A stretch of DNA of 60,953 nucleotides, filler included. It is 6 parts of 6 records of this genome, joined end to end, with 100 filler letters (N's around TTAATTAATTAA, not from the genome) between each part and the next. Parts side by side here need not be neighbours in the genome. Positions count along the whole stretch, not along the records: positions 36,645 to 57,289 come from SRR15195285_1188; 5 more parts are not named here. The stretch is one strand, 5' to 3'. Shown in pieces: positions 25 through 60,500 of the stretch (position 1 is the first letter of the stretch; each line of letters opens with the position of its first letter). Under the pieces are notes generated by a model. The model saw only the letters and a list, made by a program, of their open reading frames with translations, did no database searches and had not been told where the DNA came from. The position numbers and the translations under genes were made by a program.

Positions 25-30
25 GTGGCA

Positions 31-5097: not shown

Positions 5098-5238
5098 AAC
5101 GCCCCTCAGGTGCGAAGGCAACGGCAACGGCCATTTTGGAAAATGGACTCCTAATGGACTCCTTTATCACAAATGTTTATGGTATATGCACACATTGACT
5201 TGCTACAACAGACAGAATATTTCTGTTCATACTAGGCC

Positions 5239-15331: not shown

Positions 15332-15476
15332 CAGGGGCACGACCGGCCGATGCGTGCGTTCACTTTGCAGGTGCCATCGCTGCAGTCGCACCAAAACGAA
15401 AGGCTGGTTGCAGGGCCCTGTCTTTCGTGCGTGCTGATGTCTCACACGGTGTGGTTTGTGCCGCAGAGGGTGTGGG

Positions 15477-36644: not shown

Positions 36645-39600
36645 CCATACACACTCGACAGCTCGTTCTTCTCGATGACGGTCACTGGGTTCTGGAACTT
36701 TGACCTACCAGATGTGTCGTTTGGGTTCTCCGGTAACTTTAGCAATTCTACGCACTTGTTTCGTCCGTGCTTATCGGATGCCCCTGCTGATTGTAATCAG
36801 ACTTGCGTATGGAGAGACTTTGCGTACTTTGATGATGACGTTCCGAGGATATATATCGGCTTTGACGACAACTGCTTCTCTGATTACGTACCCAAGTCCG
36901 ATGGTACTGTGGACCTGTACGCTTACATTGCCACGGACCTGGAAGACACGACAATGATCAGCACAACAATGGGCACAGCACTGACTGACTTCGTGTCTGA
37001 AAGTTCTCGAAGCACCTTCATTGCTGCTCAATCAGGCGTCATGGTTGCCATCACTTTAGATATTGACATACACGATTGGACATCTGATCACGGAGTCATT
37101 ATCGTCAACGAAGTGGCAGGACTTCTACAGCTGCCACCAAGCGACGTGCTTTTTGTGAGCGTTAAGGCAGCTTCAGTAATCGTCACGATTCAGATTGTCA
37201 ACCCAGATGGGGCAGCCCTCGTAGCTGCGCTTCAAGCTTTAATAATAGATGACGAACACTCAACATTGTACACAAGTACTAGTCTTCTTGCTCAGGTTGT
37301 CGCCTCGATTCCATTGACCGTGGAGCACGTGCGTGGAGCCCAAGAGAGTGGTCCGTTTTACCTTGATCGGTCGTTTTTCGAGAGAAATTTTACTCGGTTT
37401 TTCGACCCTGGTCAGCCGGATGCTCGGTTTCTGTTCCATGGCGCTGCAAATGGATCTTACGTATTCAGACCTTGCTTTCATACACCGCCTAACTTCACGA
37501 AATCAGGGGGAAATCTATCTTCGCTGCTCGAGGAATGCAGTACCTCTGCCAAATCTGTTGTGCAGTCCGACTGCGAAGTTGTTCGGCCACCACGACCCCC
37601 AGAGCAAGCTGGATGGCGCTTGAACTGGAGTGAGCTGCGCAAGAAATGGAACTGGACACCTGAAGACAATGAGGTGCCGACAGCAGAACAGACAGTCTGG
37701 GTTGAGCCTGACGACAATAGATGCCAGAAAAGCCTGCCTGGTCGTGAGCTCTGCGTATGGAGGGACATCAAGCATTATGAGAACAACCCGCCTGCGATCG
37801 AGATATCTTTTGACGACCCCTGCTTTGCACTGTATCCACCTGACCACAGCGTCCTCTCACTATTCGCGTGGGTGACCACTGACGGGGGAGAGAATGAGCT
37901 AGTGTCAGTCTCGATGGAAAAGGGTGTGGCGTGGCAGTGGAAACCGGATGTGAATGTTGACCTGCTGTCTGTATACTCGGGAAACGCCACTGGACTGAAC
38001 CCGCGCTCACTTGTAGATGCAGGGAGCATAGCCACAGGACTCGACGTGCGAGCATATTCAGGCGTGCGGAACAAAAACGGTTTGGACATATTTGACGGAT
38101 CTAGAAACCGTGGCGTTGATACCAACCAGATCGGGGAGATCAATGAGCCTGCTGCTTTTCTCGTCCCTCCACCACCTCCGTTACCGTGGGGTCGAAACAT
38201 GTGGCTCAGGGATTTGAGTCCGTACTACCAAGAGCCTGACCTCCCGGCGCTTGGAAATGTTAGCTGCTCGGACTCCGGTCCCCCATGCCTCAATGGTGGC
38301 ATCTGCCGTGGTACCAACATCGACGATAAGCAACAAAATAACCCGCTACAGTTTGTGGATGGCGCTGTCTGCGCTTGCCCGTACGAATTTGGTGGGCAGT
38401 TCTGCAGCGTGGAGCGCTTCGTCGAGGTGAACGAGTCGACACCGTTTCCTCCAGAGGTATACAATCTTACGCTGAACATCAAGGGGCCCCGTGCCGCAGA
38501 CGTACCAACATGGTCCGAGCTAACTGTGTGGGACACAAACGAATGCTTGCTGGCGAACGGCGGGTGTGGTCACCCTTTGTCTGCATGGTGTGAAAATCGC
38601 TGTGGGCAATTGCCGCTTTGTCATTACACAGATGGGACTGTGCTCGAGGCACCCAACGTGACAGCGATGCTACTGCTGACCCAGAAGTTCGAAGGGTTCG
38701 GTGGAGAATTCTCGGACAGGCGCGCTCAGCAGCTTCACCAGTGGGACACTCAGCAAACTGCAATTTATCGCATGGAGCTGGGTGCTGCTGCTGCTGGAGG
38801 GGTGGTACCATCGAGTGTTCATGCGCCGCTGGACGGCTGGCAGAACGGATCTTGGAACAATCATTCACTGCACAACAAAACACTATTCAACGGCACTATT
38901 GGGCGCCGACATCTGCAGTATCAATTGTCTCCAGATGATGTGGGGCCAATTGATGGGCTGGACACGAAGAGCGGTGGAGCTTACGTGTCTATGGATGCTA
39001 ACGTGTCTACGGATGTGCTCGTGCAAGCTTACGGGTCGGTGCAAGAGTTTTGCTCGCACAATCTCATCAATGAGAACAGTACAGAAGCTATCATTGAGCT
39101 TTGCAACAACACTGAGCCGGTGTACGAGGAGTACGTCCCGGATGCATACGTTGATGCAAGTGCTCTGCTGTGTCGCGGCGAAGATGCGCAAACTAGAGAC
39201 TTCGTCGTACAGTCAAACATGATTAATCCCGCAGAGCACTGCAATGCTGGGTGGAGACCAGATATTTGTCTGGGAGAGGGGAAAACGTGGACCTATACCG
39301 TCCGTATGGCGCAAGCCCCAGCCTCGAACGTAACACTAACGGTATCGGGCAAATTTCTGCAGACAAATGTGAGTGTTGTGTTTACTCCAGATGACTACAA
39401 TATTCCGCACAATATTACTGTTTTCATGGCAGACAACATGGCGATCACCGGGCATGCATGGATGGAGATTGTGCACACATTTGTTGGCGGCGTGCAACCG
39501 ATAGACGATGAAGCACTTTTAGGTGCACTTGGGCGGAATTCTGCAGGTCATCTATGCTCCAACCGCAGCAAGTACCATTGTAGTGATGGACGGACAGCTT

Positions 39601-42600
39601 GGTCTCATGCGCGTGTGCCAAACCTGCCCGCTGACAACATGACCGGCTGGCTACAGGGTGACAACATGACCGGCATGGGCGCATGGACTCCTGGAAGACT
39701 TTGGAGTTCGACAACGAACAGTTATTACCCACTGCGGCTACCTGTGCTATATCTTGACAACGATCGTTTCGAAATGCATCCTTATCTTGGAGAAATTGGC
39801 CGTAAATTCCAGCTAGATACGCGCGTCGAAGCTGAGCAGCCTGCCTGGCGTGGACCGTTCACGTTGGGTCCGTCATTTTTTTCGGCCAACACTGCGCGTT
39901 GCCCTGATGGATCAACAGAATGGCCAGATGAAAGTTGCCTTGATGGCGCTGAGTGGGACAAGCGAAAGAGGATATTGACAACCGCTAAATCCGCTTTCCC
40001 CCCGGCGCCTCCACTTGTGGCAGACTGTGAAATGGAGTCGTGCTCACTGTCAGGTGAGGATCCTGGGTTCTGGACACACGACAGGCGCTTTGGTCTGCCG
40101 GACGTCTCGTTCAGGTTTTTTGGGCCATTCGGCTCCGTGGATAAGATTCCTTTGAAGCATCCACAGCAAGCTTTGTACGCGTTTCGACCGTGCTACGTAG
40201 AGCCGCCTGGCCTGCCTAGTGACTTTTACGACTTGAACAATATCAAGTGCCCTGAGATGGCGAAGTACCACCTCGAACTGGATGACGAAGAGGAGGCCCC
40301 GCCCTATCCTAACCAGTACAGGGGCCCAGCACAAGACCAAGCAGAAGACCCATTGTGTCTGTGGTCGGTAGTCTATCAGTGGGAGCTCAACCCTCCGACG
40401 CTGTATATCGGGTACGATGACCCGTGCTGGAACGCTTATCCACTCGACGAGCAGAACATGTACGTTGACCTTTACTTTTTCATTACCGACGTTTGGGGGG
40501 CCGACTTCGAAGCTGTCTCTGGATTTGGTGAGATTCCTGATGTCGGCGACATGGCTGCGCCCGAAGTTCCTGGCGAAGGTCCTGGGGGCATGGGTGTCCC
40601 AGGACTGCCTACCGGGCCAACCCAGCAATTCTCTCTCGGCGATCCAATTACCATACGCATTTCAATGGAAAAAGGAAAACGGCTCAACCCTGCTCTGATG
40701 CCGGATAATGTCGGTACGCAGGGGAAGGCGGGCACCTCTGCTGTCGTTGCATCCACCGCTCTTGGCGCCATGTTCGGTGATCCCGTCGGTATGATCAAGA
40801 ATTTGCAAGAGACAGCGGCTGGTGGCTCTACCAACGCGCCGCTGAACGCCAACATGCGGCTTTTTGCTTCCAAATTTGGTTGGGTTAACATGGGATTCTT
40901 GAACCCGCCACCAGAATCGTTGGTGAACATGATGGTCCCTGGAGAGTATCGCACCCCACGACGCCGTCTCCGGCAGCTCAATGAAGCCGCAGCAAACGGC
41001 ACAGACGCACCCGAGGAATCCGATGACAAAACTTCTATTTCATCTGACTTACCTGACCCCAATGAGTCAGGCAATACCGGATTCTTGCGCAAGAGCGGTT
41101 TGTCTGCTGATGAGTTTTTCATTGGCACCATGCTAGCAATCCTGCTCGTACCTTTGGTCACCGGTGTGGTGCATGGGCCGTTGGTAAAACGTACTGAGAG
41201 GTTGAGAAACACTGCGCGCAACACAGTGCTTGACAAGCAGGCAATGATTCTGAAGCACAAGCAGTTCCAGCAGTTTGCGCCTGAGTTTGACGACTTGCTG
41301 CAGAAAATGCCTGAGTGGGAAACTCCCCCAAAGTTCAAGCTGTCTGCACTACTCCTGGGAATTGTAACGTTACAAAACATGGGTATCTGTCAAGCATCTT
41401 TGCTTGCAATCTTCGAACCTTCTGCAGTTACGACGAAACTGATGGCCATGGTGTGCATGTGTGTGTTTCCTGGGGGGTTTATCGTGTATACATACATCAC
41501 GCTTCGCGGCGTGATGGAGCCAGAGGCCAAGATTCCTCTGATTCTCACTGGGGGCATCGGAGTTCGCTACTGGACATTTGCACAGGTGGTGCTGCAGTCC
41601 ATTCCTAAAGCCCTTCAGCCGTACGACATCACATTCGAGTACTCAATTCCGCCAGAGCTCCGTGAAAAGCCTGTGCCCGTCGTACCATTCGTCCCGCCCG
41701 GCACGGCGCCGGAAGATGCGAAAGTGATTTTGCAAGAGGCTGCCGACGCCAACAAAGAGATCGCGACGGCCCGGCTACACGCAATCAAAAAGCTCGGCCC
41801 AGAGGCTGCTGTGCTGATGGGGAAATGGAACGTCAAGACGCCGGTGGCCGAGCAATGGATGGGTGTCTACGGCCAACAGTTCAAGATGTACACGAACAAT
41901 GGCTTCTGGCTAGTAGCCTTGGATCAGACAAAGCGCCTGATCCAAATCATTCTCCTTGCTGCGCTTGGGAGCTTGCCAGCACTCGGTCCCATGCAGGTCA
42001 AGCTACTGACCGCGCTTGCACTTGCAGAGTTCGTGATCATTTGCAAAACCCGTCCGTTCGTCAAGCTCTTCCAAAATTTGGAAGTGATTGGTACGCATTA
42101 TACAAAGATGTCGCAAATGGTAGCACCGATTCTGCTGAATCTGCACCTGGTTGAAGACCAGTTTACTGCGCTGTACATGATGGCAATGAATGGTATCGCC
42201 GTAGGTGTCGGAGTGGTCAAAGAATTCGGCGGTGCCATTTGGCCAATAATTAAGTTTGTCGAGGAAGAGGGGGAGGCAGTCGTCGGCGGTGCTTTGAAAA
42301 CCGTATTGGCCTTCTTTATTATGCTTGGTTACATCAAACGCAAGGTCCTTGGTGGAATGGAGCGACCGAAGCCTCCGCCCCCGATATGGCAGATGATCAA
42401 GATGCCGCCACCAGTTATCAACTTGCTCGCGGAGATGATGCCCGCGCCTGTGATGGAAGGTCTAACGTTGGCTATTGGTGACGCAAATCCAATCTTGAAG
42501 GCGTACGCGCAGACTTTTTCCAAGGTTGGGGCGGAATGGATGAAAGCCGAGGGAGCGAAGGAGCTCGAACGTCAATTCAAGCAGGTCCTTGATAGCCACC

Positions 42601-45600
42601 ATCCACGCCACAAGGTGTCCCTGATGAAATTTATCAACAGGTTTCATAAGGCTGCTATCTTGACAGTGTTTCAATTGTGTCAACCCAAGCTGAAATCGGT
42701 TGCGCAGTCTATCTACGACGAAGCAATGCGCGTTGCGACAGCGGAGCGAGAGAAGCGTGCAAATGCGAAATCAGGAAAAGATCCCATCGCAGCGGCGATG
42801 GCTATCATCAATCCAGAGATGGTTGGTAAACTCACTGGATTGCTCGGAGACATCCAGCCCCGCATTCAGCAACTGATAGGCAGTAGCCTCAGATCGCTGG
42901 AAAAATGGTTGAAAAATGGTGGCCAAAAGCAAATCGATGTGGCACTGAAGGAGGTTCAGGCCCGTGTGTCAACCATGATGAAAGACGCTGAAGCAGTTGC
43001 GAAGGAGAAAGCCATGGCTGTGGCGAAGAATGCTGAGCAGAGATCAAAAGATGTCGCAAAGCAAGAAGCCGCAGCCGCAAACAGTGGTTCAAAGCGTGGG
43101 AAAACGAAAGCAAGTAAGGGGGAAATTAAGCAGATGAAAGCAGATCTGGAGGAGCTGAAACGCAAAGTGGAAGAGGCGAGAGCACAACAATTGCAGCTCA
43201 ATGAACTGAAGCAGAGAATTGAGAGTGCGAAGTCCGATGCAGGAGCGTCTGAAGATGTTAAGGCGCTCAAAGCAGAAGCCAAAGACAAGGCAAAAGCGCT
43301 TGTTGACGTTGATTCGCTTCAGAAGCAGGTTTCTGACAAAGCAGCCGAGATTGTGGTGGCATCTGGCGGCCCAAACATGGCAGGGATGGCGGACAAATTG
43401 GAAATGGTCCGAGCAAAACAAGCTGAGCTCACCCAACTCAAAGCCAAGCTGGACGCTGCAAAAGGGAAAATCGCGGAATTGGAAGCTTTGCGTGGGCAGA
43501 TCGAAGACGCCAAGGCAGATCCGTTGAGCAGATCTGACGTCGGTAAAGAAAAAATACAGACCCTCGAGCAGGAGCTCAAGGCGAAGTTCGGGCGTAAGGC
43601 AGCACAAGCTGGTGGCGACGACCAAAAGGCTTCGAAGGAGCTGGCCAGTTTGGAGAAAGCAGTGACGCAAACGGCAGCTGAGATCGTGTCACTGTCCCCA
43701 CTGCCCAGTGCAAAGGAGAAAATGGAACAAGCGAAAAGAAAGAAAGCCGCAGTCGATGCCAAGAAAGCAGAGATCGAGAAGCTAAAAGTCCAGATGGAAG
43801 CAATCCAGCAGAAGAAGGAGGATGGCGACCAGGCAGCTATTGAGACGGAGCTTTGTGCCAAAGCTGAAGAGCTGCTTGAACTGATGGGCGTCCCAAAAGG
43901 CTTTCCAGGTGGTGCCATTATAGCAAAGATGGAGCAAGCCAAACAGTTGCACATCGATATAATACTGTTGAAAGGGCAGATTGATGACGCAAAGAAGGCG
44001 GTTAAGGAAGCAAAAAAGCAAGGAGTGGCTGCAGTCGCAAAAGCTGAAGAGCATGCTAAAGGTGCAGTGCCTGATATGCAAGCGCACGCTGAAGATGGCG
44101 TGGCTAGTGCTCAAGTTCATGCGCAGCAAGCGATGGGTGACGTGAGCAATGCAGCAGGTGGTGCTGCAACCGGTAATGCGGGAGCATCATCGGAGAATAT
44201 GGAGCTAGCTGCTCGGGTCAAGGGTGGTGAGCGGCCGCTGGAGCTAGCGTTCAGAATGATGGGTGGGCCAGAGGAGGACCTTGCAGCGTTGCAGGAGCAG
44301 CTTGCACTCAAAGGCGAGGAGTTTAAAGAGATGATTGCTGGCACACCGATGGATCCTAACACGCTGCCAATCAAAGTCCCAACAATGCAATTTGTCAAGA
44401 AGGGTGTGCTTAAGGCAGGCAATGATTTCAAGGCCATGCTAGAAGCACAAGGTGGGGAGGTTGGAGCGCAAATGGCGCTGATCGACCTGGACGGTGACTT
44501 GAAGATGGCTCCACTTGTTCGTGAGTTTAGCAAGTTGATGCAGGTCCAAATCATTGCCTTGGCTCGCAAGAAGATTGTGCCCGTTCTTGAGCGAAAGATC
44601 GATGGTATAGGACTACCAAACCGTGTCATTCTTGCGAAAGTCAAAGAAATCGTTTACGATCTGGCAGAGAAAATTTTGCGCAAGGCTGTGAATGACAAAG
44701 TTAAGGCTGTGTCAGCTGAGCTGCTCAACAGGCTCAAAGTTCCAGGATGTGGAGTAAAGGTGCAGAAGGCTGAGAGTGAAGAGAGCGATCAGTTTGGTTG
44801 GGTGATCAGTGAAGGTGACTACTTATCTCAGAATCCACGCTTCGGCCTGGCACCTGTGCGTGGAGTGGGTGGGAGTTTACAGGCAGAGATCAACAAGGTG
44901 ATTGACCCAGAGGTGCAGCAAAAGATGAAAGATGCGTTGGGACCAATACTTCCTATCCTGAAGGCCTACGTCTCCGTAGCAAGCACTAGCGCAAAGAACT
45001 GGTTTGAGAAAACAGGCAAGCCACAGATCGCGGACGCTAAGGCAGCAGTTGCCGAAAAGAAGAGGCCCGACAAGGACATGTTGAAGGGTCTCTTACTATC
45101 GATTGAATGTCCGGTATTTAAGTGGCACAAGAAAGGTCTAGCTTCTGCACTTGATATCGTTCTGCCCATGCTGAAGGAGCGAGGTGGCATGCTCACACAG
45201 CGCATGGAGGAATGCATTGCTGCAGCCCAGAAAAAACTTGGAAGCAAAGGAGCGATTGACGTAGCCACAATAGTGCCTGCGCACGTAGACAGCATGGCAG
45301 ATACAGATGCAGGTGCAGATGTAACGTTTGCAAACCCACTAGCAGACATCCACGACGAAGGCTCTGCTGACCTAACCCTAGCTGAACGAATTCAAGGCGG
45401 CGCGGAAGATGCGAAGGCAATGGCAGATGCTAAATTGAAACAGGTACAAGAACTTCAAGCTGAATTGGATGCGCTGATGGTTCAGATGGAGGCGGTTCGG
45501 GAGCAGGTGCAAGCAGCTAAGGAAAGTAACATCCCTGAAGACGACATTCCTAGTTTGGACGGCCTAGAAGAAAAAAAGGCTGAGCTTGAGGCCGAGATCA

Positions 45601-48600
45601 AAGAGCTTACTGACGTCGACCTCGATGCATTGGCGGCGATGGCACCGTTTCCTTTGCCGTTTGACAGACTCAAGCTCAAAGCGTCACAGCTTCGACGAAT
45701 GTTCGACCATATGATGCAAGAGGCCGTGATGGACAAGGTCTACACGGACCTGTTTCCAACACTGGACTCGAAATTGAAAGCATTAGGGCTACTCGGTCCT
45801 GTGGCGAAAAAAGTCAAAGCGTTTGTGTACGACCAGGTAGAGGACAAGCTACGGCAAGCGATCCACATGAAGGTTGTCGAGCAATATGACAATCTTTCTG
45901 GATCAATGAAACCACCAGACCTGGGTGTTGCACAAGAGAAAGGGGATGGAAAGGGCTTTCATGAAGCCGAGGAAGAAGACGAGTTTGGATGGGAGACAAA
46001 CCTTGGTGGTTGGGATAAGGAAAAGAAGCGCCGCAGAAAGGCAGGAGACGGCCCTGGAAGCCCAGCAGCTTTGGCAAATCAGATTGTGGGACCAGAAGTG
46101 ATGGCAAGGCTCCAAGAGTTGGCCACAGGCGACAGTCCACCTGGTGATGCCGTGGGAGCGACCGATACCGATGATCAGGACGCGACCGGACCTGTTAGTG
46201 TCCCGCGTTTGATACAAGTGTACATCGAGGCTGCGCATGGTGCCTTCGAGATATGGAAAGAGGAAACAAGGACTATCATCCTGGATGCTGGGAAGAACCC
46301 GAAAAAGCTTCTATCTATACTGGTTCCGTATCCAGATTTTCAAGCTGCCGGTCTTCGGGCTGCCTTGAGGCGAATGCTTCCGTTCATCCTGGCGCAAGCT
46401 GGTCCGATGGCGGAACGTGCACAGGCTTTAGGGTTGGCCAAAGCTGCTGAAGCCCAGGCGAAGGTCGAAGGAAAGGCTCAAGCTCAAGCCCAGGAACAGA
46501 TGGGTGGATTCGAAAACGCACTTGTTGATAGTGATCTTGATCTCTCTGGTCGAGTCCAAGGTGGAGCACCAAAGCCAATCGGCCTCGATGCATTCGACAT
46601 GCCTCGCCTTCGACGTGCGTTCAGCCAGCTGCTGCAGGAAATGGTAATGGACAAGGTCAAGCTTGAAGTCTTCCCCTTGTTGGACTCCTCCGTGATGGAC
46701 TTGTGCACTGAGCAGGACATTCCTGCTTTTGTTGGGAAGAAGATCAAGACGGTGGTATTTGATATTGCCGAAGAGACGGTCCGGAAGCTTATGCATGGTC
46801 AAGTATTGCAGGCGTTTGCACAGGTGGCTGGGAAAATGCAGATGCCGGGAATGGGTGAGGTGTCACCGAAAGAGAAGAAGTCTGACAAAGAAGACGACTT
46901 CGGGTTTTTGGTCAAAGAAGGTGGTTATCTAAAATACCATAAGAAAGCTGGTGCCACTGGCGGCATCATGGACTTTGTACAAGTAGTGTTGGATGACAAA
47001 ACTGTTGCTAGTCTCAGCGCGCTCGCAGACGAAGCAGCTCCATTCGTGAAGGAATACGTTGCTGGTGCGATGAAGGAACACGGCAAGTGGGTGTCACACG
47101 AAGGAAAGGTGCCTCTCAAAGAGGCTGCCGACAACCCAAAGTTGCTCAGCAAAATTGAAGTCCCAGCATCTGATTTTCACAGAGCAGGTCTATTGGCATC
47201 GATCGCGAACCTCAGATCAAAGATGGAAAAGGCCGGCGGCAAGCTGCAGGAAAAGGCTCAGATGGTGGTCACCTCTGCAGATGATCGCAGTACAGACCTT
47301 CGCCGTGAATTGGACCAAATGGCTCAGGAGTTCGTTATGAGCATTTGTGAAGAGAAGATCTTTCCTAGACTCAAAAAGTCTGTAGGTAAAATCCCCAAAA
47401 TGCCACCTGGCCCAGTGAAGAAAAAGGTCACGACTCTGGTTTTTGATATGGCTGAGGGCACCGTCCGCAAAGCTGTGCACAATCAGATTCGTGATACATT
47501 TGCAGAGTTGACAACACAAATGGTGCCTCCTGGCGCATCAGTAGCAGATGAACAAGGGGAGGAACAAGAAGAGGACGACTTCGGCTTCCTAGTTGAACAT
47601 GGGGGATATAAGGCTTTCAAAGGGGGGAGTGCAACTGCGGGCCTGAAAGCCGCTGCAATTGGGCATGCAAAGTCAATCTTAGACGCGGATATGCTGAAAA
47701 AAGTGGAAGCCCAGGCAGACAGCATCGTCCCATTCATCCAGACGTATACCAAGGTAGCGGAAAAGAAGAAGGAAAAATGGATGCAGAAGGTTGCGCAAGC
47801 TGAAATGGACAAGGCGACAAAGGAAGGGCAGCCACTGTGCAACATTCAGGTACCAGTGGCAGAATTTCAATCCGAAGCTATCATGGCAGCAATCAACAAA
47901 CTCAAGCCCAAGATGGCAAAACTGGGTGGAACAGCAGGAGACCTTGCTGCACAAATTAAAGTCGACCCAAAAGAGCTCCCTCACTCCACAGATATTCGGC
48001 GGGTACTTAGTCAGCTACTGCAACAGTACGTGATGGACATGGTTGAAGAGCAGGTTTTCCCCGAGCTGGATGCCTCGGTACAGAAATTGCCGATCCCCAG
48101 CGTTGGACCAATGAAGGCTCTCAAGGCGCAAGTTACCGTCCAGTGTTACAGTCTAACGGATGAGACCGCGAGAAAGCAGGTCCACGCAAACATTCTGGCA
48201 GCGTTTAGTACAGTCGAAGATCAGATGAAAGTGCCAGGGTGTTCCGTTGCGGAAGAGGGTGGAACAGCACAGCCAGAAGACGCGTTTGGTTTTTTGAAGT
48301 CCAAAGGTGGTTTCAAAGAGTTCAAGAAAACGGAACTGTTGCATTCGACTGGGAAGATGGCAGCTGCAATGGGCGCGGCTGCAGTAGCTGTCGCAGTCGC
48401 AGGAGCGGCGGCTGCAGACGAGATGCCGACAGTCTTCGGCAAGTGCAGACACTGCATACAAGACCTGAAGGTGTACGGTCCAGCTCACCCGTGCTTTCGT
48501 GAGTTTGGTGCTATCGATGAATGGATATGCGATGTGTGTGGAAAGGGCAAGGACAAGAAAGACCCCCTTTTCTGCTGCGAAAGGTTTGATGACTGTGACT

Positions 48601-51600
48601 GGGCCGCCTGCGTCAAGTGCCAGCTGCTGCCAGACCCAAAAGATCACGTGGACAAGATAATGGACAAGAACATGCGCAAGTCGTTGCAAGGAGCTGTCAA
48701 ATCCCTAAACTCGCTGATCAAGGTCTACGCTGATGAGGCGCAAAAGGATCGTCAGCGCTGGCTTGTGAACGCAGCTACATCTGGTCAGAAGAGAATCGAT
48801 GCAGCCCGTGAGAATGGGACCCTCGGCGAACTGCAGGTGCCAGTTGCATGTTTTCAGAAGGCAGGCCTGCTCAGTTTGGGTAGCCTTGTGAAGCCGAAGA
48901 TGACTAAACTAGGTGGCAAGGTGGCCGCACGCGCAGCGGCCGCTGCCTTGACGGATCGTCAGCACAGTACAGACCTGCGGCGAGAGGTAGACTTGATGTT
49001 GCAAGACCTCATTGTGGAGCAAACGAAGCTTGCCGTGTATCCAGAACTTGACAAAAAGATCCAGATGCTGGTGCGTGCCGGACTTGTCGCCATTCTAGCG
49101 CAGAGTTTGATAGCTCCCTACTAAGCGTGACATTGCATTGTTGTGTTGTGAAACTGTGGGATGAACCGTGCAGAGTGATCGTCACAGGTCCAAGAAGGTA
49201 CGTCTGAACGGACGGCAAACCTGTTCATTACCTCTGGATGGACTGCACTGCTAACCTTTTGTCACTGTGGTCTGGGCAGGGGCTCAAGGCGTTTGATAAG
49301 CCAACGAAGAAGTCTTTGAAAATTGCGGTATACATGCTTGCAGAAGAGACCTTACGACGGGCTTGCCACGAGAAGTTTGTAGACGCGTTCGAGTCTACAG
49401 GGCAAATGTTGCAGATCGAAGGATGCAGCCTGGAACCCGAGCCAGCAGGGGGACACGAGGAAGACGAGTACGGATTCCTGCAGTCAGCAGGAGGCTTCGA
49501 GTCATACCGCGCCAATCAGGTGGATCTTGTTCCGTTTTTCGACCAAGCGGCATTTGTGGACAAGGTATTGGACAAGAAGATTAGGCAACTTATCGACAAG
49601 ACCACGAAGTCTGTGTGCACAGCACTGGCAGACTACCAGAAAGTTGCTATTGCAAAACAGCAAGAGTGGTTGAAAACTGGAGGTCAGCAGGCGATTGATA
49701 GTGCAACAGCAGACGGATCAGTCGGAGGGGTACGCGTGCCAATTGCCAAGTTTCACATCGAAGGACTTGCCGCATTGAGCAGAGTTCTGCGTCCAAAGAT
49801 GGAAGAGATGGGTGGCAAAGCTGCCGAGCGCGCAAGTGTGACCCAAGCGCCACCTGGCGGCGGCAGCACCGATTTGCGCCGAGAGACCAGCCAGCTGCTC
49901 CAGCAGATGGCTGTGGATGAGTTTTTCTCTTCCGCGGCGGCGATGTTTGAAAAGAACCTGACAGTTCTAGATTTGTCTGACTGGCCGGAAGAATCTAGAA
50001 CGAAAGTCAGGACAGAGGCTTTGGATGTAGCTGAGGAGGCCATTCGGAAAGCCGTCCACAATCAGGTGCTAGATACTTACAAAAGTGTCTCCAAGCTTGT
50101 GAAGGTTGATGGCTGCGGCATCTTCAAGGAGATGGGCGAGACGAAGCTAGAAGACTCCTTCGGGTTCCTGACAGCTACTGGTGGCTACAGTGCGCACAAG
50201 CTAGCCAATCAGGTCGCCCCACATGGGGCAACAGAATTCAGTTCAGCTGCCTGGACTACGGAGCAAGCTTTCGGCTTTTGCAGAATCTGTAGTCAGCAGC
50301 TCCACCTCTATGGCACGAGCCATGCTTGCTTTCCCGAGTTCGGCAAAATTGATGAGTGGGAATGCGACGTCTGCGGTCTGACTTATGGTGAAGCGGATGA
50401 CCTATTCTGTTGCCCGACGTTCGATCAGTGTGACTGGGGTGCATGCCAAAAATGCCAGGAGTTGCCAGACCCACGGCCGTATGTAGAGAAGGTCATAAAC
50501 GCTAAGGTCATGCAAAAGCTGGAAAAGGTGACGGTCGCTACTTCGTCAGTGATGGGTAATTTTGCGCAAGTCGCACAACAGAAACGAAAGGAGTGGCTGG
50601 ACGCCGAAGGCCAAGCACTGATTGAAAAGGCAACACAAGACGGTGATCTAGGCAGTGTGCACGTGCCGGTGTTTTCGTTTCAACTTGAGGGCATGCACAC
50701 TGTCAAGGACGCCATTGTCCCAAAGATGCTTAAATTGGGTGGTAAAGCTGCGGCGCGTGCGGAAATCTCACTCATCGATAGAGACACAGGTGCGCGAAGT
50801 ACTGACCTGCGCCGGGAGCTCATCCACTTGCTTCAGCAGCTGGCCGTGGATGCAGCACTTGTGACTGCATTTCCAGATGTCGATAAGAACATTACCTCCC
50901 TAGAGTTCCCTAGAAATACCCCAAAAGGTACCAAACGCCTGGTTCGCAGAGCTGTGTACGAAAAGGCGCAGGATATCGTTAGAACATCTGTATATAGCCA
51001 GGTGATGTCGTCCTACAACAATACAACAAAAGCATTGGAGGTGAAAGGTTGTAGTTCTGTGCCCGAGGATGGCGAGATGCAGCCAGAGGATGATGTTGGC
51101 TTCCTTGAAGCAACCGATGGGTATGCAGGTTACAAGGCAAGATTTAAAGCCCAAGAGTTGCTTCGCGCGGAGTACCAAGATTTGGGTAAGAACCATTTGA
51201 TTAACAAACTCAAATCGGCGGGCGACGGCATGGAATCGTTGAGTACTGAAGGTAGCAAAGCGCAGCTTATTGAGCGTTTGATGGCAGCCGCAGTAGAATA
51301 TGCGTGGGAACCGCATCTGGACGCAGCTGAGGAAGCTCAAATCGCTCGAGAAAAGGCCGCCAAACAGGCTGCACGTTCCCGACTGAGAATGCTGGAGCCT
51401 GAGCTAGCAGATCTGGACGCTTCAAAGCTCCGTAAGCAGCTTAAGAAACGGAAGCTCGACACTACAGGTAAGAAAGTGGACCTCTTAGAGCGGCTTTCCA
51501 AAGCGCTAGAACACGAGAGGACCGCAGGAACGAGTCCAGATGAAGCGAACCAAGCGACAGCTGCAGGAGCGCGGGACCCGGGGCTTGAGGCCGAGACTGA

Positions 51601-54600
51601 ATTGGTAGGGAAGAAAAAGAAAAAGAAGAAGAAGACCTCGGACGCCTCGCATACCTCTGAGTCTGTTGCCGAATCTGAGATGGTATCATCACGCGATGCT
51701 ACGTCGACAACGAAGACGAAGACGAAAAAGAAGAAGAAGAAGCAGAAGAACATGGACGCGGAGACACTTGATCTGCCTGATCGCGTGAAAGGAGGCACGA
51801 GTGACTATGATTTTGTGGAAGAACTGCAGGCGCTGATGGAGACTGTCGCTGCCGAGACTGCAGTGGATCGTGCCGTGTGGCAGTACCTTTCGAATGACAA
51901 GCCTGACGAGGTCGACCTGACAAAGCTGAGAGCAGAACTGCAGATTAAGTTCTTGGGTGCACGTTCTACCGATCTGATTCACTCAGCCTCCTCGCTGCTT
52001 AGTTTGGATGAATCAGCCTCAACCGAAAGAATTCCTTCAGTTGATGATATCATGTCCGAACAGGAGCAAGGCATCAGAGCTCGAGTTGAGTCAACGGCTT
52101 GGGTCATCGAGGCCTTTGAAATGGATTTAAGCCAGCCGATTTTGGAAGATGCTCTCGCGGCAAGCCTTGCGCATCCAGACTTTGAGTGCCTATGGGCGAC
52201 CGATCTTAGTGCCGGGCCGGGATGCCTGCCTCCACATGCCTTGGATCTGTCAGGTCATGTGCAAGGTGGCATTGCGTTCGATCACCTAGGCGACATGGTC
52301 CTGTCTTCAAGTTCGGATGTTCGTGGCAAGTCGATATGTGATCGATTCGTTTTCAAGGTAACTGCATCGATAGCGCGCACCCTCGATCACCACGGCCTTG
52401 CGTGGTACACATCCCCTGACATGGCTCGCTCCGAATGGTCTGCATCGAATCTATTCGCCAAGCATTTGGGGTTGGAGTCACGTGTCAGAGGTGGAGATGC
52501 TGAGGGTGATCACCATGATGACGAGCAACACCATAGTGATGATGAACATCACACCGATCACGAGCACCAGAGCGATGATGAAGAGCAGCACGCGCCCGAG
52601 GAAGTTGAGCTGACCGAAGATGAGAAAGCGATTATGGCCGGTGAGATTGAGAATGTCGACGACGAGCTACTGCACGAGCAAGAGAACAACGCCCATACCG
52701 TGAAAAAGTACCAAGGGCTCGGGACGATGCTTCTCGAGAAAGCCCATAAGAAAATTGATCCCCGGGGCTGGACTGTCGACCAAGCCAAAGACTTTCTATC
52801 AGAAGTCATTCAAGACATTGTGTTTTGCCGAGCTTCCCTTGCGCTTGACCCCGAGATCACAGCGAAAATTGATCAGATAGAATACATACCGGACGGTGCA
52901 GACGTTCCTGTCGTTCTGCCGACTATCATGAAAGCAATACTGCAAAAAGCTGTAGATGAAATGATTGAAGGGACGGTGAGGGAACAAGTTGATAAGTTAG
53001 TTCGTAAGTGTTTCAAGGTGGCTACCAGGGTCTTCAAGAAGACCGTGCCAGGCATTGAAATCCCTACGGTTGAAGAAGAAGGAGAGGACGAAGAGGGAGT
53101 CGAGGCAGGCGATGACGATGCCGAAGATGCCAGACTAGACAAACTAGGGGATGGGCACCGCGTCATGCTCGAAGAGGGACTCGACGAGTATGTCACGGAG
53201 GACATCATTCCAACTCATCAAACTGCCGGTGCCGCGCTTGTGGCTGGTGTCGGAGTCGCGTCGATACTGGGCATCCCTGAGAAGGACTCCACTGGGAATC
53301 GTCCGTGGATATTGACCATTCTCGATGAAAAAACTCTTGAGGCCGCATTGTACAACTTGACGTGGCTAGATCCAGTGATGAAGGAATACTCAAAGCAGGC
53401 ACACAAGGCTCAAGCAGATTGGTATTCAAACCAGTTTCCGAGGCTAAAACGTAAAATGAAACAGAAAGACAGTGCAAAGCAACGTCAATATCGTGGTCAG
53501 GAAAACGTCCAAATTCCTGTGCACATGTTCCATTATGCTGGCCTTGACAGTGCGGTGAAGCTTATGCTGAAGAAAATGAAGAAGGGTGGCAAAGCATTGA
53601 AGGTTCTTGGCGAACAGCTTGCCTTGAAACTTCCCGCCAATGGCGGGACTTTGACAATGGAAGAAGACAGCGAAGGGCGAGCAGCGATGGCCCCACTGGA
53701 GTATAGGGCCGTAGTGATGGAGATGATGCAACACTATGTTCAGCAGCACACAGTAAATGTCTTATTTCCGGGGATGATAGACGCTCAAGTCGACAAGGTG
53801 GCAGAGATGATAGCCAAAGATAACAAAAGCAAAAAAGGTACGAAGAAGCATTTAGACAAGCAAGGCCTCATACTGCAAAAGGAAAAGCTACGAAAACAGG
53901 CATATGACTCAGTGATGTCGCTCATCAAGAGCCAGGTAGCACTGACCGTGCATGACACGTGGGACAATATCACGCGCAAGTTAGTGATTCCGGGAACTGA
54001 AGCATCAGTGCCAGTTGATGACAGTCACTGGACGTGCGTGCCTACCCTCGGTGGCTGCAAGAAGTGTGGATCTAAGCTCAGCCTGTTCGACACGAACCAC
54101 GTAGCCTGTAAGTCAGAGCAAGATGTTGAAGACGGCGACGTTCCGCCTCTTATAGATGCAGACAGAGAAAAGGGTGATGCACGCAAGACACTGAAGCAAG
54201 TACTCGGTGTGGATTCGGAAACGAGGCGCCTGTGTGACGTGTGCGGCAACAAGATCAAATTTAGAAATGGAACTTTTGACATGCTGTTCGTCTGCGACAA
54301 CTTCGCTGTGTGCGATTGGGGCGCGTGTGGGCGTTGCCAGGCAAGGATTGTTGCCACTTCGGATAAACCTCCCGTCCAAACCTCGAAGCGCTCAAAAAAC
54401 TGGAACGGTAGGAAGGACAAGAAGGAAAAGCAGCAGAAGGACAAGCAAGGAGACGGTCAGAGCACAGAGGGTGATTTCGAATACATCGCAAATCCGTTGG
54501 GGCCGAATGACGACGAAGAGACCCTGGATCCACTTGCAGAGCTGATGGAATCACCAGAGGCAAAGAGAGAAGTTCAATCTTCAGCTGCAGGCGCGCTGAT

Positions 54601-56761
54601 GCAACAATCAACATTTGTGTTGGACAAGCACATTCAGACTCTTTTTGGCGATGGAAAGGTCACAAAGAAGCTTGAAAAGCTCGCCGGAAATGCATCCGCA
54701 GCAATGGCAGAATACGCAAAGGTAGCAAGGCAGCAGCAAAAGGAGTGGCTGAAGACGGAGGGTCAGCAGTTCATCGACATCGCCATGGCAGAAAGCACGA
54801 TGGGTGACGTGCTTGTACCTGTCGATTCATTCCAAATCGACGGGCTGCGGGCTGTACTCGTTTCGTGTGGCAACATGGTGGCCGAAAAATATCACACTCA
54901 GGCACGTGCACGACTAGAAATTTCGAATATAAACGAACCGTTGACTCGCAGTACGGACCTTCGACGCGAGGTCAGCCATTTATTGCAACAGAAGGCTGTA
55001 GATGAAGCTGCAGTCAAGGTGTACCCGGAGCTTGATACGAGAATCGCAAGATTGGATTTAGAAATGGGTACGGCAGACAGTTTGCGCAAAGCGGCATACA
55101 GCATGGCCGAGGATACCGTGCGCATGGCAGTGCACAGTCAAATACTCGCCGCCTACAAAGATGGCAAACGAGCGTTGAAGGTCAAAGGCTGCGGCGTCGC
55201 GAAAGAGCAAGGCAGCCCTCAACAGGTAGATGAGTACGGGTTCCTTGTTGCACTGGGCGGATATCCTGCATTCAAGCGGCGCAAGGAAACGCAAGAGAGC
55301 CTGCGCTGCGTGTACGAAGACATGGGCAAGGACCACCTGAAAGTCAAACTAGCACTTGCGTGCCCTAATGCTGCCACCAGCGGGACTAAGGCGGAAATAA
55401 TTGAGCGCTTGATCATGGCAATGATTGAATACGCTGCCACTGCAGAACTTGCTGATGAGGAAAAGGCTCAAATCAAGCGTGAGGCAGAGGCGAAGGCTCT
55501 TGCGCTCCAACATTTGAGGACACAGGGCGAAGAGTTTGCAAGAATGAAGGCCCCAGCTCTACGTAAGGAACTTGAGAAACGTGGTCTCAGTACGACAGGG
55601 AAAAAGGCAGAGCTCATGGAGCGACTTGCCAAGTCACTAGAATCGTTTCAAAGTGACGTGGAGGCGGGGAAAATTGACGTTCAGAATATGGCCAAAAGGC
55701 TGCCGCCATCGCCCAGCGCGCCGGTTCCACAAACGAAGTTTAAAGGCAAGCTTCCCGGCTCCAAGAAAAGGGGCAAGCAGACGAACAGCGAGGAGAACCC
55801 AATGTTCAAGAATCCCCTGGCATCTGCAGATGCGGCAGGCACACCTACTGCAGATGAGGTCGGTCAACATCATGGTACCGATGTTTTTGAAGGAGATGAT
55901 GTTGACCTTCAAGATGAACAAACTCCACGCAAAGGCATGAGGAGCAAGAAGAAACGCAAGAGTACGAGCAAGGGCAAGAGCAAGAAGGGTGCCCCCGCGC
56001 TCAAGCAGGAGGATACGGACGCGGATTTTGTTGCGTTTGCAAACCCGCTAGCACAAGATCCGGCGGAGAATGACAGTAGCAAAAGCGATCCTGCTGGCAA
56101 GATGAAGAACCCTATGTTCGATGATTCAGTGGATGGTGCAACGATGCTGCCTGCCGGTAGGCTGGCGCGTAGCAAAGGCAAAAATGCAAAGAAAGGCGAA
56201 GGCAAAGGGCGCCCAAAGGATGAACAGAAGGATGTTCAATTCAGCAACCCACTAATTGGTAGCACTTCAGATATAGAGGACGAAAACCCGAGTCTACCCA
56301 AATCGAACAAGAGCGAAGTCTCAACGTCAGAGGTCAGCGCCAGCCGGCTTACAACACCACAAGGCGACCCAACAGCCGACCAGAAGGCGCCAGGCAAATT
56401 TGCGAAGCCGAAAGGCAAGACGAAGATGGACAAGAAGAGGAAAGCTTCTTCAAAAGTCAAGGCTAGCACGAAGGCAACTGAGTCAAAGCAAGAAGCGGCC
56501 AAATTTCGCAATCCACTAATGCACATAGATAGTTTCGATGCTGGTGCGCCAGACTATGATGCAAATCCACTAGCAGAGCAGACTGACCGGTCACTTAGTG
56601 TCGACAAAAATAAGAGTGGCAAGGGCAAACAGAAAGGAGGTCGTGGCGGCAAGGGTGGCGCGACCAAATCAAAGAACAAAAGGAAAGCGCGTCATGAAAT
56701 TAAATCCAAGACAACCAATCCCATTCACGATGGGGCAAAGCAATTTGAGGAAAGCGAGTAA
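36645..56761 (+). CDS. Giant receptor/channel-like membrane protein, >6,600 aa (5'-partial; exons 36645-49070 and 49280-56761)
   Basis: The 4149-aa and 2507-aa ORFs share the same ~200-aa repeat and join in phase 0 in the middle of a repeat unit. The frame is open to the contig start (PYTLDSSFFS matches GPFYLDRSFF and GPFTLGPSFF of later ectodomain repeats). Two EGF-like modules ~38260-38410 and ~38530-38625. Calx-beta-like module ~39270-39480. Hydrophobic block ~40730-42330 with YGQQFKMYTNNGFW...QVKLL...RPFVKLFQN, resembling the TRP/Flc-Pkd2-like membrane domain. Confidence 0.85.
49071..49279 (+). other. Intron (209 bp), possibly two introns around a 24-nt micro-exon
   Basis: CTG|GTGCGT...GCTAAC (branch)...GGCAG|GGG, with in-frame stops inside. 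Confidence 0.8.
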
Positions 56762-57289
56762 ACATCACGGAAAGAATCACCGCCCGATGCTTGTAGCGAG
56801 GACGAGAGCACGACCATAGGCTGGTCATTCGGGACTTTAGAGTGTCTGGCTGGTCATTCTTTCGTGGTTTGAGTAAAGATGCTGATTCTACAGCCTCCGC
56901 TCGCCACCCATACACGCTCGGGCCGCGCTCCCGCGAGCCTTCCTCGACTAGCTAAGGTTTATTCAATGCAACGGACCAACGCCCAAGTATAGTGTTGCGT
57001 CATACGCATGTTAGTACAATTGCAATGAAAACCACGACAACACTTGCAAACAATGATTGCACATGTGGACTCGAACGCTAGGCTTGAGCGGCCTAGCGAG
57101 CTGTGTAGGTTGCGTCGAGATCGCTAGCGAGAGATAGGATTGGCTTCGGGTCTAGAGCAGTGAGGCCTCCAGGCTCTGCCAGGCTGCACAGGGCTTTGCT
57201 GGGCTCTGCCAGAGCCCGGAGCACCGAAAACAACGCTACGAGTGGACAATGGATCTTAGGAGTACGGTCCGCAATTCGAAGCGGCAATC

Positions 57290-57440: not shown

Positions 57441-57581
57441 GCATGGGCAGATGCACAGACAGGCAGGCAGATGCCGCCCGGCTTCCTGTCGATCGCGGCA
57501 CCTTGAGCCGCCGTCTGTAGCGACCGCTGCGCGAGGTTTTGTGAGCGCCACCATGTGCTGACTGAGTGTTGGATGCGGCAG

Positions 57582-60500
57582 GTGAGCGTGCTGAGCATGC
57601 GTGAGATCAGCGCTGGGGGCGGGACGGAGCACGAGCTGGTCTGCCGGGTGTACCTCACGAACGAGGGCGAGGCGCCCGTGGTCTACCGCTGGATGACGAG
57701 CAACACGCCGAGGTACGTGGTGCGCTCCAAGCAGGGTGTGCTGGAGCCCAAGGGCGGCCGCGCTGCGGTCGAGATCCTCTCCAAAGCCGCGAGCGCGGCG
57801 GAGCTCGCGGAGGACAAGTTCCGCCTGTCGCTCGCGTGGGGGGCGGACGCCGAGAAGCGCTGGCAGGAGATCGACCAGCTCTCGTCCAAGGAAGCCAGGG
57901 CTCACGTCAGCAAACGCAAGCTGACGGTCGCGCTGTCAGAGCCTGAGGAGGCCCTCGCCGATCCTGTCGCAGAGGACGACGCAGAGCCAGCGGCGGCGGA
58001 GGAAGGGGAGGCACAGCCGGAGCTGGACCCGGAGATCGCGGATGACCCGGCCGCGTGGGTCACCGCGCGCAACAAGGGCTACTGTGTGACGACCACTCGC
58101 CCAGGTGACGGCTGCAGCTTTCCGCAGAAGGGGGATCGCGTGCTTGTGCACTACACCGGTATGCTGCGTGAGGGTGGCACCAAATTCGCCAGCAGCCGGG
58201 GCAAGGGCGGCGATCCATTCGAAACCAGCGTCGGGATGGCGAAGGTGATCAAGGGCTGGGACGAAGGTCTGCGTGAGATGGCACAAGGCGAGCGCGCTGT
58301 GCTGCGGGTCAGCTCTGGCTTCGCGTACGCGGCCAAGGGCTTTGGCGACAAGGTCCCAGCGGACGCCGACCTCGTCTACGATATCGAGCTGCTCGCTGTG
58401 TCACCGAGGCCATCGGACGCGAAAGTCAAGGCGTACGGAGATGACACTCGGTTTTCCGTCATTAAACGCTTCTACGAAAAGCACGACAGCGGGAAGACGG
58501 AGCAGCAGATTCGCGACATTTTAGCCAAGGACAAGTACAAGACCGACTTCTCGAAACTGTGCAAGATGTTGTATAAGAAGTACAACGAGGACCCGGCTGT
58601 GCTGTGGTGGAGCGAGCAGAAGCTCACTCCTGCAAAATCAAAAGACACAGCGCCACCGAAGAAGGCTGACAAAGCAGGCGACGACTTTCCGGGTGCATCT
58701 GCGAAGATTTTCTTCAAAGCGGAGAGTAAGGCACCCGCTTTCGGCAGCTGGGCGTCGCAGGCGTCGGCAGCCTCTTCGGGAGGACTGTTCGGGAGCAGCA
58801 GCTCAACGCCATCGTTTTCTTTTACAAACCCAAGTGCCTCATCAGCGAGTGCCTCGGTTGGTAAGCCTGCGTTTGGCGCCCCAAGCGTCCTGGGTTTGGC
58901 ACAGCCGGCGTTCGGCTCAGCAAGCTCACTTGGATCAAGCTCGTCTGCCTCTACAGCCGCCGCAAGCCTCCCGACGTTCTCGTTTGCGAAGATAGGTCAA
59001 GGATCTGACCCGCCGAGTTTTTCATTCGCCAAGTCTGGTGCCGCAAGCAGTGCAGCTTCCAGTACCGCGTCGTCGTCCAGCTTCTCATTCAAGCCGGCGC
59101 CTGTGGCTGGGAGTTCGACGTCCTCCTCCAGCACGCCACCGCCCACTGCAGCGGGATCCTCTGCATTTTCGGGAGCATCGGCGCAGGGAACCAAGTTGAA
59201 TTTTTCTACACCCGGTTCCGTGGCCTCTTCTGCTGGCGATTCTCCTGCCGCAGCCTCATCACCTGCACAGGATAGCAGCGACACGATCCCCATCGAGGAA
59301 ATGTCCGTGAAGCAGGTGGCCGACTGGATCGCTGAGGTCAAACTGGAAGCCGAAGGAGACCCGTTCGAAGGCCATCATATCGATGGTGTCGCCCTGAGAC
59401 ATCTGGACGATGTTGCTTTAAAGCAGGACATGTCTGTGACCAGGGTGGCTGACCGCCAAGCGATCCTCAGCGGAGTCGCCATACTTGAAAGTGCTGGTTA
59501 CGATACCTCTCTTCCACCTCCTACCCACTTGCAAGGGTTGTTCAGCAGCGCGACTACGAGTGCCACTGTTGGCACCACGGCCGCGGGCGCTTCGTCTACC
59601 GGATTTTCGTTCAGCTCGTCGACTTCAGGAGGATTTTCCTTCGCTCCTGCTGCCAGCCCAGCCAGCGCAGCGGCCAGCCAGCCAGCCGTCGCGGTTGGCA
59701 GTGCTGTGTCGTCACCGACGACGACGGCGACCAGTAGCGTTCCACCCTTCTCCTTTGCGCCAATGGCTACCACCGAGGACGAGTATTCGTACTCGACGAA
59801 GCCTGGTCACTTGCGGTTAGGCGACACTGATCTGAAACTGCAGAGCGTGACTACCAAGCAGGTTGGTGCTTTCTACCGTCAAGTCTGCAAGGCTGGATCA
59901 TTAGTGAACAGTGCAGTGCCGCTCTTGGCTTCGCACAACGTAGATGGTGAAGCATTGGTGCATTTAACGGCAAAAACGTGCATTGAAGAGATGGATGCGA
60001 CTCAGGCTCTCACTGACTTCATGATGGGCGTTAGGGACCGCTTAGTGAATGGACCAGGAGCTTCTGCTGCTAAGCCGCAGCCCGTGTTGTCTGCCGAGGA
60101 GGTGCGCATGGCTGACTATCAACAGGGGAAAACTGCAACCGCGGCCGCTGCACCCGATGTAGTTCCGCCCCCAGCACCTGCGGCGCCGCCAGTGCGGCCG
60201 ATGGCACAAGCATTTGCAGGTGGGGAGACTGTCAGTGCGCTGCCCTCATCAGTCAGTGGTGGACACTGCTTCGTGAGTGGCGGCGGTGCCGGCATCCTTG
60301 TTGCGCATACGGTTGGGCACAGCGGTGACGAGTCCTTGTGCACAAGAGGGTTTGCTCATGCGCAGATCAGTGTGGCTCAAAATGGTGCAGGCACGGCTAC
60401 GTTTGCTTTCGAACCAGGTGCTTTGGCAGTTGACAGGCGGCCGCCTGCTGCGAGAAATGCACCCGCCGCCGTGAATACCATGGGTAGAGTTGGAGGTGGT

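Follow-up and report, generated by a model that had tools for sequence, protein, structure and literature searches.

A single gene on the plus strand of a 60,953-nucleotide (nt) stretch of DNA, hereafter called the window, encodes a giant protein of about 6,633 amino acids (aa), and a large part of this protein is built from copies of one repeated unit of about 225 aa. The gene occupies positions 36675–56761, within the part of the window that comes from record SRR15195285_1188, and holds all of the repeats. The repeat is real, and RNA from the ocean shows its gene to be expressed and spliced. As judged from its sequence and predicted fold against Pfam-A, the PDB sequences and the PDB folds, the unit is an undescribed domain family with a generic elongated helical-bundle architecture. 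The source of the giant protein is probably an uncultured marine protist belonging to Picozoa.

Two long plus-strand open frames, one of 4,149 aa (36675–49124) and one of 2,507 aa (49238–56761), span the repeat-bearing region 42400–55275. The gap that separates these frames interrupts unit 7 midway and has GT and AG dinucleotides on its flanks. The interruption is no frame break and is explained by two GT..AG introns of 103 nt (49071–49173) and 82 nt (49198–49279) around a 24-nt micro-exon (49174–49197), whose eight codons lie within a variable loop of unit 7. In one metatranscriptome contig from run X15 (depth 3.4), position 49070 is continuous with 49174 and position 49197 with 49280, so that both joints are present. 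Therefore, the two frames belong to one gene with a product of about 6,633 aa, and a model with a single 209-nt intron in unit 7 was dropped. No further splice joints were reported in contigs over 42400–56800 (14.4 kb). The residue numbering used below follows the 6,625-aa version of the protein, which lacks the eight micro-exon residues.

In the RNA-library runs X14 and X15, contigs at 95% identity or more were found in 26 of the 30 bins of 42400–56800 each, and the oligo-dT library X17 gave contigs in nine of these bins; bins without RNA contigs (4/30 in X14 and X15, 21/30 in X17) are uninformative on expression. Bin coverage alone is insufficient to demonstrate transcription, and RNA origin is proven only by the spliced X15 contig. 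Eight runs each contain at least half of the words sampled from 47000–51000. The rows with words from this segment belong to 16 studies and carry marine or seawater metagenome labels, except for X12 (rhizosphere).

To locate the units, we scanned the translated gene with regular expressions. The unit-end motif [DE]x[FYV]G[FW] occurs at nt 44787, 45978, 46893, 47574, 48279, 49463, 50153, 51089 and 55229, so that all nine unit ends given in the initial annotation were recovered to within 3 nt; the motif STD[LI]RR occurs at nt 47289, 47985, 48966, 49865, 50798 and 54950. A degenerate copy, whose end had been put at about 54020, was also recovered: it covers aa 5471–5714, its tail motif has decayed, and it ends near nt 54025. 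We counted six intact units, three split units and one degenerate unit, in agreement with the 9–10 copies that had been proposed, together with up to three doubtful remnants. The consensus of five intact units was almost letter-for-letter the same as the string given in the initial annotation; the length of a unit, given there as about 200 aa, was measured as about 225 aa.

The copies are clearly related at the protein level. In BLASTP searches run against a database of the 15 units only, intact units matched each other with E values of 1e-19 to 1e-52 (28–42% identity), the three split C-halves matched intact units with E values of 1e-9 to 1e-20 (22–43% identity), and two split N-halves did so with best E values of 1e-5 to 1e-9 (20–30% identity), with marginal similarity (E about 1e-2 to 1e-3) for aa 1920–2026, 2036–2136 and 5275–5404. 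At the DNA level, similarity among the copies was limited to one 41-nt stretch present in six copies at 63–73% identity, and short runs of Lys- and His-rich codons were the only tandem arrays seen. Given that so little DNA similarity remains, the duplications, and thus the array, are old. A comparison of the N-half and C-half profiles of the unit gave an hhalign probability of 0.6%; therefore, the unit is not itself an internal duplication. A six-frame search of both strands did not find the unit in any other open frame of the window. The features of the gene, all on the plus strand, are as follows.

36675–41114, +: N-terminal part of about 1,480 aa; acidic, Cys-rich (36 Cys) and rich in N-glycosylation sequons
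41115–42335, +: predicted membrane anchor of about 7–8 hydrophobic helices (aa 1481–1887; hydropathy)
42432–43082, +: marginal N-half-like pieces U1N (aa 1920–2026) and U2N (aa 2036–2136), E 1e-2 to 1e-3
43083–44339, +: 419-aa Ala/Lys/Glu-rich, helix-prone insert in unit 2, with its own internal repeats of about 100 aa and RVKGG at nt 44214 near its end
44340–44822, +: unit 2, C-part (profile positions 61–226; unit profile and BLASTP)
44877–46016, +: unit 3, split (N-half 44877–45224, C-half 45678–46016)
between 45224 and 45678, +: unit 3 insert, 151 aa, acidic, with FANPL at 45327 and RIQGG at 45387
46197–46937, +: unit 4, split (N-half 46197–46436, C-half 46608–46937), with a 57-aa insert bearing RVQGG at 46551
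46941–47618, +: unit 5, intact, 226 aa (modelled singly)
47637–48323, +: unit 6, intact, 229 aa
48444–48620, +: Cys-rich finger 1 (CxxC...HxC...CDxCG...FCC...CDWxACxxC)
48615–49507, +: unit 7, intact once spliced (exon to 49070, micro-exon 49174–49197, exon from 49280)
49517–50197, +: unit 8, intact, 227 aa
50279–50455, +: Cys-rich finger 2
50447–51133, +: unit 9, intact, 229 aa
51134–52705, +: 524-aa acidic linker with a SAP pair (one copy at 51428–51496) and poly-Lys runs at 51611 and 51725
52706–53095, +: marginal C-half-like piece (aa 5275–5404)
53294–54025, +: unit 11, degenerate full copy with decayed tail motif
54056–54337, +: Cys-rich finger 3, with a long insert
54605–55273, +: unit 12, intact, 223 aa
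55274–56761, +: basic C-terminal tail (net +24) with a SAP pair (55337–55411, 55559–55627), Lys-rich runs and the stop codon
44199–44228, 45372–45401, 46536–46565, 51767–51796, 52241–52270 and 52466–52495, +: LxLxxRVxGG sites (approximate positions)

The inserts of units 2, 3 and 4 all lie at the loop before the STDLRRE helix. The initial annotation had described the early copies as interrupted by coiled-coil insertions; the insertions are real and lie inside the unit, but a Fourier test for heptad periodicity in these charged inserts gave weak power, so that they are at most putative coiled coils. Split profile matches indicate that insertions are tolerated at two loops, at about profile positions 66–70 and 110–116, and EF-hands as well as charged inserts are flanked by split unit matches in the giant or its relatives.

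Next, we predicted the structure of the unit, a step that had been proposed together with the earlier description of the repeat as helical. An AlphaFold2 model of the unit 5 sequence, made from five aligned units, reached a predicted local distance difference test score (pLDDT) of 86.7 and a predicted template modelling score (pTM) of 0.81. The modelled helices cover residues 19–52, 56–71 (kinked), 76–108 (kinked), 117–149 (kinked) and 158–194, that is, four long helices (about 33–37 residues each) and a short one, and these are followed by a tail of about 30 residues (195–226) that is mostly extended and bears the ED-x-FGFL...GG(Y/F) motif. A tandem-pair model built with 14 sequences (pLDDT 90.5, pTM 0.61) was confident for each unit and not for their mutual orientation. 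Both models thus agree with the helical character claimed for the unit, in the form of an elongated helical bundle. When the halves of split unit 3 were modelled as a complex without use of our alignments, the score was 0.02, where the mark is 0.34, and this result counts neither way. In 131 instances taken from the giant and from related proteins, conservation was highest at W50, P74, F78, R122, R123, Q130, P143, E175, R179, D215, G218 and G224–G225. These are mostly Gly, Pro, aromatic residues or charged pairs spaced i/i+4, a pattern that would fit a structural rather than a catalytic role.

The initial annotation could place the unit in no family and considered that it might be a new domain, and our searches support this. 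A strong match to a Pfam or InterPro family, named there as the result that would count against this idea, was looked for in Pfam-A and not seen on the unit: Pfam-A scans of both open frames of the giant at E ≤ 0.1 returned only SAP, outside the units, and scans of seven sub-segments at E ≤ 5 again gave SAP above threshold and no family on the units. In 76 of 112 homologues (18 scanned at E ≤ 0.01 and 58 at E ≤ 0.05), no family recurred on the unit, and isolated sub-threshold matches on units occurred in one or two proteins each. A profile of five units had no match at E ≤ 10 among 177,635 distinct PDB sequences (hmmsearch), and Foldseek searches of the PDB with both models gave none at E ≤ 0.001; the syntaxin Sso2 and an endophilin BAR domain appeared only at E values of 0.08–0.6 with TM scores below 0.25, and a family's absence from these structural lists, as with spectrin, is no evidence against it. 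The string STDLRRE was not found in the literature searched.

To determine how widely the domain occurs, we searched 1.84 billion representative proteins with the five-unit profile, and obtained 112 matches at E ≤ 0.001, of which 72 reached E ≤ 1e-10 and 38 reached E ≤ 1e-30. This was a single-pass search with a five-sequence profile, and most of the 112 relatives are fragments; a word-index profile search, which returned three and zero matches in its two modes, scored only the 8000 candidates sharing the most words and is uninformative. For nine of the 30 clusters looked up, an organism name was available, in each case that of a Picozoa single-cell assembly in EukProt (COSAG01, 02, 05, 06 and SAG31), presumably from PMC8599508. 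The other clusters looked up consist of marine sequences without an organism name. Thus, by the names available, the domain occurs so far only in Picozoa and in unnamed marine metagenome or metatranscriptome sequences. A marine eukaryotic origin of the sequence agrees both with these names and with the marine and seawater runs in which the segment 47000–51000 was found. An axonemal dynein gene in the window has metagenomic nearest proteins at 96, 94 and 86% identity, the best named one reaching 62% (‘Rmarinus’, EukProt) and others 56–61%; these values fit a lineage without close named genomes and are no proof of Picozoa.

Fragments from other sources resembled individual units of the giant with identities of 94, 87, 65, 61 and 53%. 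Given that sister units within the giant share only 28–42%, the array is older than the split of these lineages, with each unit having been kept since. The domain company of the unit varies among relatives: EF-hand pairs occur in seven of the 76 scanned homologues, in some of them between pieces of one unit; SAP occurs in two, with two more identified by precomputed Pfam annotation and eight SAP stretches in P0003; and one SAM-like domain was seen. Units lie downstream of membrane helices in the giant and in P0035, P0055, P0072, P0086 and P0107. In the 177-aa fragment P0093, the unit directly follows the last 40 or so profile positions of the choline-transporter-like family PF04515 (E 6.5e-9). 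Thus, the unit is attached to membrane domains of different kinds.

Within the giant, the N-terminal part of about 1,480 aa probably lies outside the cell or in a lumen, as suggested by its composition. It contains most of the 29 N-glycosylation sequons that precede aa 1560, and a threefold Cys repeat (FRPC...CxW...NPPxIxIxxDDxC...[FY]xxTD) at nt 36759–36875, 37464–37823 and 40182–40427. Pfam at E ≤ 5 gave two sub-threshold matches in this part and otherwise none, the threefold repeat being unmatched. The sequence behind the first ATG does not encode a signal peptide, and this ATG is a putative start only. The membrane region that follows is kept in the homologues P0127 (44% identity) and P0035 (31%). 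Behind it comes a tail of about 4,700 aa, presumably cytoplasmic, carrying the units and the interspersed modules, and its first unit-like piece begins 33 aa past the last membrane helix.

In the tail, Cys-rich fingers come after units 6, 8 and 11, and the same finger module is also present in P0003; their Cys spacing looks ZZ-like by eye, by comparison with the ZZ-type consensus, and neither PF00569 nor another Pfam zinc finger matched the three segments at E ≤ 5. SAP pairs come after units 9 and 12, and the SAP match (PF02037) is strong, with an E value of 8e-24 and 83.2 bits against a cut-off of 23.9, in two stretches of P0002. In 50447–51500 and 54605–55630, unit 9 and unit 12 each lead into a comparable two-SAP stretch, and a unit with its SAP pair looks like a duplicated super-module.

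With about even confidence, we propose that the unit is a structural spacer module of a membrane-anchored scaffold, a function that is probably the best fit to the sequence and the predicted fold. In this proposal, the cluster of 7–8 helices would anchor the giant in a membrane, and about ten units would follow on its C-terminal, presumably cytoplasmic, side. Stiff helical modules of about 5 nm, strung head to tail, would then form a long membrane-tethered arm, along which the SAP pairs, Cys-rich fingers, charged helical inserts and two peptide motifs (LxLxxRVxGG and FxNPL, described below), and in paralogues EF-hand pairs, may be displayed. The insertion-tolerant loops of the unit would allow further binding modules to be presented.

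Spectrin repeat arrays, as in nesprins, dystrophin and plakins, offer a familiar parallel: they are tandem, diverged helical units (about 30% identical) on giant membrane-tied scaffolds, and in nesprins and dystrophin they display binding modules along an arm in the same way. The giant resembles them in its tandem, all-helical and diverged units, its interspersed binding modules and its conservation at core and turn positions. However, a spectrin repeat is a 106-aa three-helix bundle, whereas the picozoan unit has about 225 aa, four long helices and a short one, and a conserved extended tail, and there is no Pfam match to the spectrin family (PF00435) in the giant or in the 76 homologues. The anchor of the giant is a 7–8-helix cluster on the N-terminal side, whereas spectrin scaffolds use a C-terminal KASH domain or an actin-binding head. 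In addition, large domains are inserted inside picozoan units and not merely between them, unlike in spectrin arrays.

Several points weigh against the scaffold proposal. The head-to-tail geometry of the rod and the docking of the tail are derived from secondary structure alone, and a pTM of 0.61, as obtained for the tandem pair, would fit flexibly strung beads just as well. The strictly conserved polar residues (RR, Q, E, R and D) could form a binding site instead of salt bridges. SAP domains and Lys-rich runs point to contact with nucleic acids, for which a plasma-membrane scaffold has no obvious need. Topology was judged from hydropathy and from sequon and Cys counts only, and the N-terminal start was taken at the first ATG, without a signal peptide. 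As for the restriction to one lineage, names were checked for only 30 of the 112 clusters, and the single pass with a five-sequence profile leaves room for occurrence outside Picozoa.

We also considered the possibility that the unit is a regulatory or gating module rather than a passive spacer. It would then form an arm on the cytoplasmic side of a channel or transporter, and the inserted EF-hands would make this channel or transporter responsive to Ca2+. This is unlikely in our view, and some arrangements are nevertheless consistent with it. The distance from the last membrane helix to the start of the units is 30–90 residues in the giant and in P0035, P0055, P0072, P0086 and P0107, the P0093 unit stands after the end of a choline-transporter-like domain, and EF-hand pairs occur in the homologues, some of them between unit pieces. 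There are also weak leads to the TRP-like family PF06011, namely a score of 0.91 for the membrane region of the giant in the Atlas feature search (DGF-1_C scoring 0.93) and a match in P0055 with an E value of 0.0049 (16.2 bits against a cut-off of 28.5). However, the Atlas recognition value was 2019, below the tool's mark of 2300, and the membrane region of the giant had no Pfam channel or transporter family, or any other family, at threshold in a scan at E ≤ 5. Moreover, ten or more serial units with SAP domains and fingers between them are unlike a gating domain. In general layout, the Trypanosoma cruzi DGF-1 proteins and the fungal Flc/Pkd2-type proteins of PF06011 do resemble the giant, being very large and having a multi-helix membrane region behind an extensive N-terminal part rich in Cys; neither family matched the giant at threshold in Pfam, and we know of no DGF-1 or PF06011 family that carries the picozoan unit, SAP pairs or these fingers.

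A different question is ancestry, and any answer to it is compatible with any functional reading. The unit might belong to a helical family that is already known and have diverged from it greatly, in which case the domain would not be new; examples of such families are the NIBAN/FAM129 bundle and the three-helix bundles of the Sey1, atlastin and GBP GTPases. We regard this as quite improbable. The first lead of the Atlas feature search (0.96) was a cluster with 58% Sey1_3HB (three-helix bundle) members, and GBP_C (0.88) and GVIN1 (0.84) stood lower in the list. However, the recognition value was low (1309), and agreement of five of the 10 best family leads is rated ‘probably wrong’ by the tool. 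The Sey1_3HB and GBP_C scores are within the chance range by the tools' own notes, and we kept the Atlas leads as leads only. The 78 proteins scanned gave no Pfam match to these families. In contrast to Sey1/RHD3 (PF20428), GBP_C (PF02841) and atlastin, the giant and the 76 scanned homologues have no GTPase domain and no PF20428 or PF02841 match; the giant also lacks a PH domain according to the Pfam scan. The structural match to NIBAN2/FAM129B (MINERVA, PDB 7ctp) had a root-mean-square deviation above 5 Å, 12–14% identity and a Z score in the generic helical-bundle range, and it covers chain residues 2–300, the PH domain included, whereas the picozoan unit is repeated and has no PH domain. 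NIBAN is described as an 11-helix L-shaped bundle around a PH domain, called a novel fold by its authors, and FAM129 is stated to be vertebrate-only (PMC7663100).

The linkers and inserts of the giant carry a conserved peptide motif, [LM]-x-L-[SAT]-x-R-[VI]-x-G-G (LxLxxRVxGG), which could be a processing or docking signal. It occurs six times in the giant, including three times in the acidic linker at 51134–52705 (RVKGG at 51782, HVQGG at 52256 and RVRGG at 52481), and 12 times in eight of the 112 homologues (P0003, P0008, P0009, P0033, P0078, P0082, P0099 and P0114). Against this total of 18, shuffling the 51,626 residues 200 times gave 0.125 occurrences on average and at most 2, and within the window the motif is confined to this gene. 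It always lies in linkers or inserts, often with acidic residues before it and an acidic run after it.

Such a strong over-representation, in these positions, is also what might be expected if the giant were a precursor cut after LxLxxR-V-x-G-G by a protease of the ubiquitin-tail type, freeing helical pieces, pieces with SAP domains and pieces with fingers from the membrane anchor. The last five residues of the motif resemble the C-terminus of ubiquitin and ISG15, RLRGG, and a fragment released to the nucleus could be expected to carry SAP domains and poly-Lys runs. We nevertheless hold this to be very unlikely. The cleavage is putative, no ubiquitin-family Pfam match lies upstream of any motif, and position P4 is Val or Ile and not Leu. 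Three of the motifs lie inside split units, so that cutting would sever a domain, and a docking peptide is equally possible. Further still from what we expect, processing at these sites might free helical-unit fragments with SAP domains, zinc fingers and poly-Lys nuclear signals, constituting a route, specific to Picozoa, that leads from a sensor in the membrane to chromatin; if this long shot were true, it would involve both a new domain and a new processing code. Finally, because the window derives from an environmental assembly, it could be asked whether an error of assembly or annotation had produced the open frame or the repeat, with no real gene behind it; this idea can be discarded almost entirely and is counted as refuted, given the homologue search (112 homologues with conserved unit boundaries), the recurrence of the sequence at 95% identity or more in contigs of several independent marine runs, the spliced RNA contig and the confident fold predictions.

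Two further observations concern these motifs. A segment of about 70–75 aa between two RVxGG motifs (52271–52495, aa about 5130–5204) is conserved in P0033 and P0078, and the spacing of the motifs is kept there (485 to 562 in P0033 and 694 to 770 in P0078); its length and C-terminal GG recall a ubiquitin-like module, and it had no Pfam match. The second motif, F-x-N-P-L, occurs four times in the basic C-terminal tail (55805, 56036, 56240 and 56504) and once (45327) 15 residues upstream of the RIQGG site. A pairing of FANPL with RVQGG is also found in P0114, and FxNPL occurs in six homologues.

Picozoa are abundant, uncultured marine heterotrophic flagellates known mostly from single-cell genomes, and their cell biology is almost blank. 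The present finding defines a domain of about 225 aa, found so far only under picozoan names and with 112 representative relatives, which builds some of the largest expressed proteins of these organisms and is combined in them with EF-hands, SAP domains, zinc fingers and membrane anchors. Helical repeats confined to a single lineage are no rarity in giant proteins of protists, and the domain alone, its function being inferred, does not open a long-standing question. The profile and the unit boundaries can be used to annotate picozoan genomes and ocean metatranscriptomes, and the domain is a candidate lineage marker. LxLxxRVxGG and FxNPL provide two conserved peptide motifs that are testable as processing or docking signals.

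The window is gene-dense, its long frames are open without interruption, and the other genes in it are ordinary eukaryotic ones. Next to each other lie a 1,698-aa plus-strand frame bearing an EF-hand (1–5097) and a minus-strand frame of 3,027 aa with no Pfam match at E ≤ 0.001 (5239–14322). The axonemal dynein heavy chain (17034–26648, minus strand) is cut at its N-terminal part. Smaller genes encode an amine-oxidase-like protein (15456–16922, minus strand), a trypsin-like peptidase (31565–33388, plus strand) and an XK-related protein (34276–36048, plus strand). A further plus-strand frame at 57555–60953 encodes an MSP-FKBP-SAM-SPRY fusion that runs off the end of the window.

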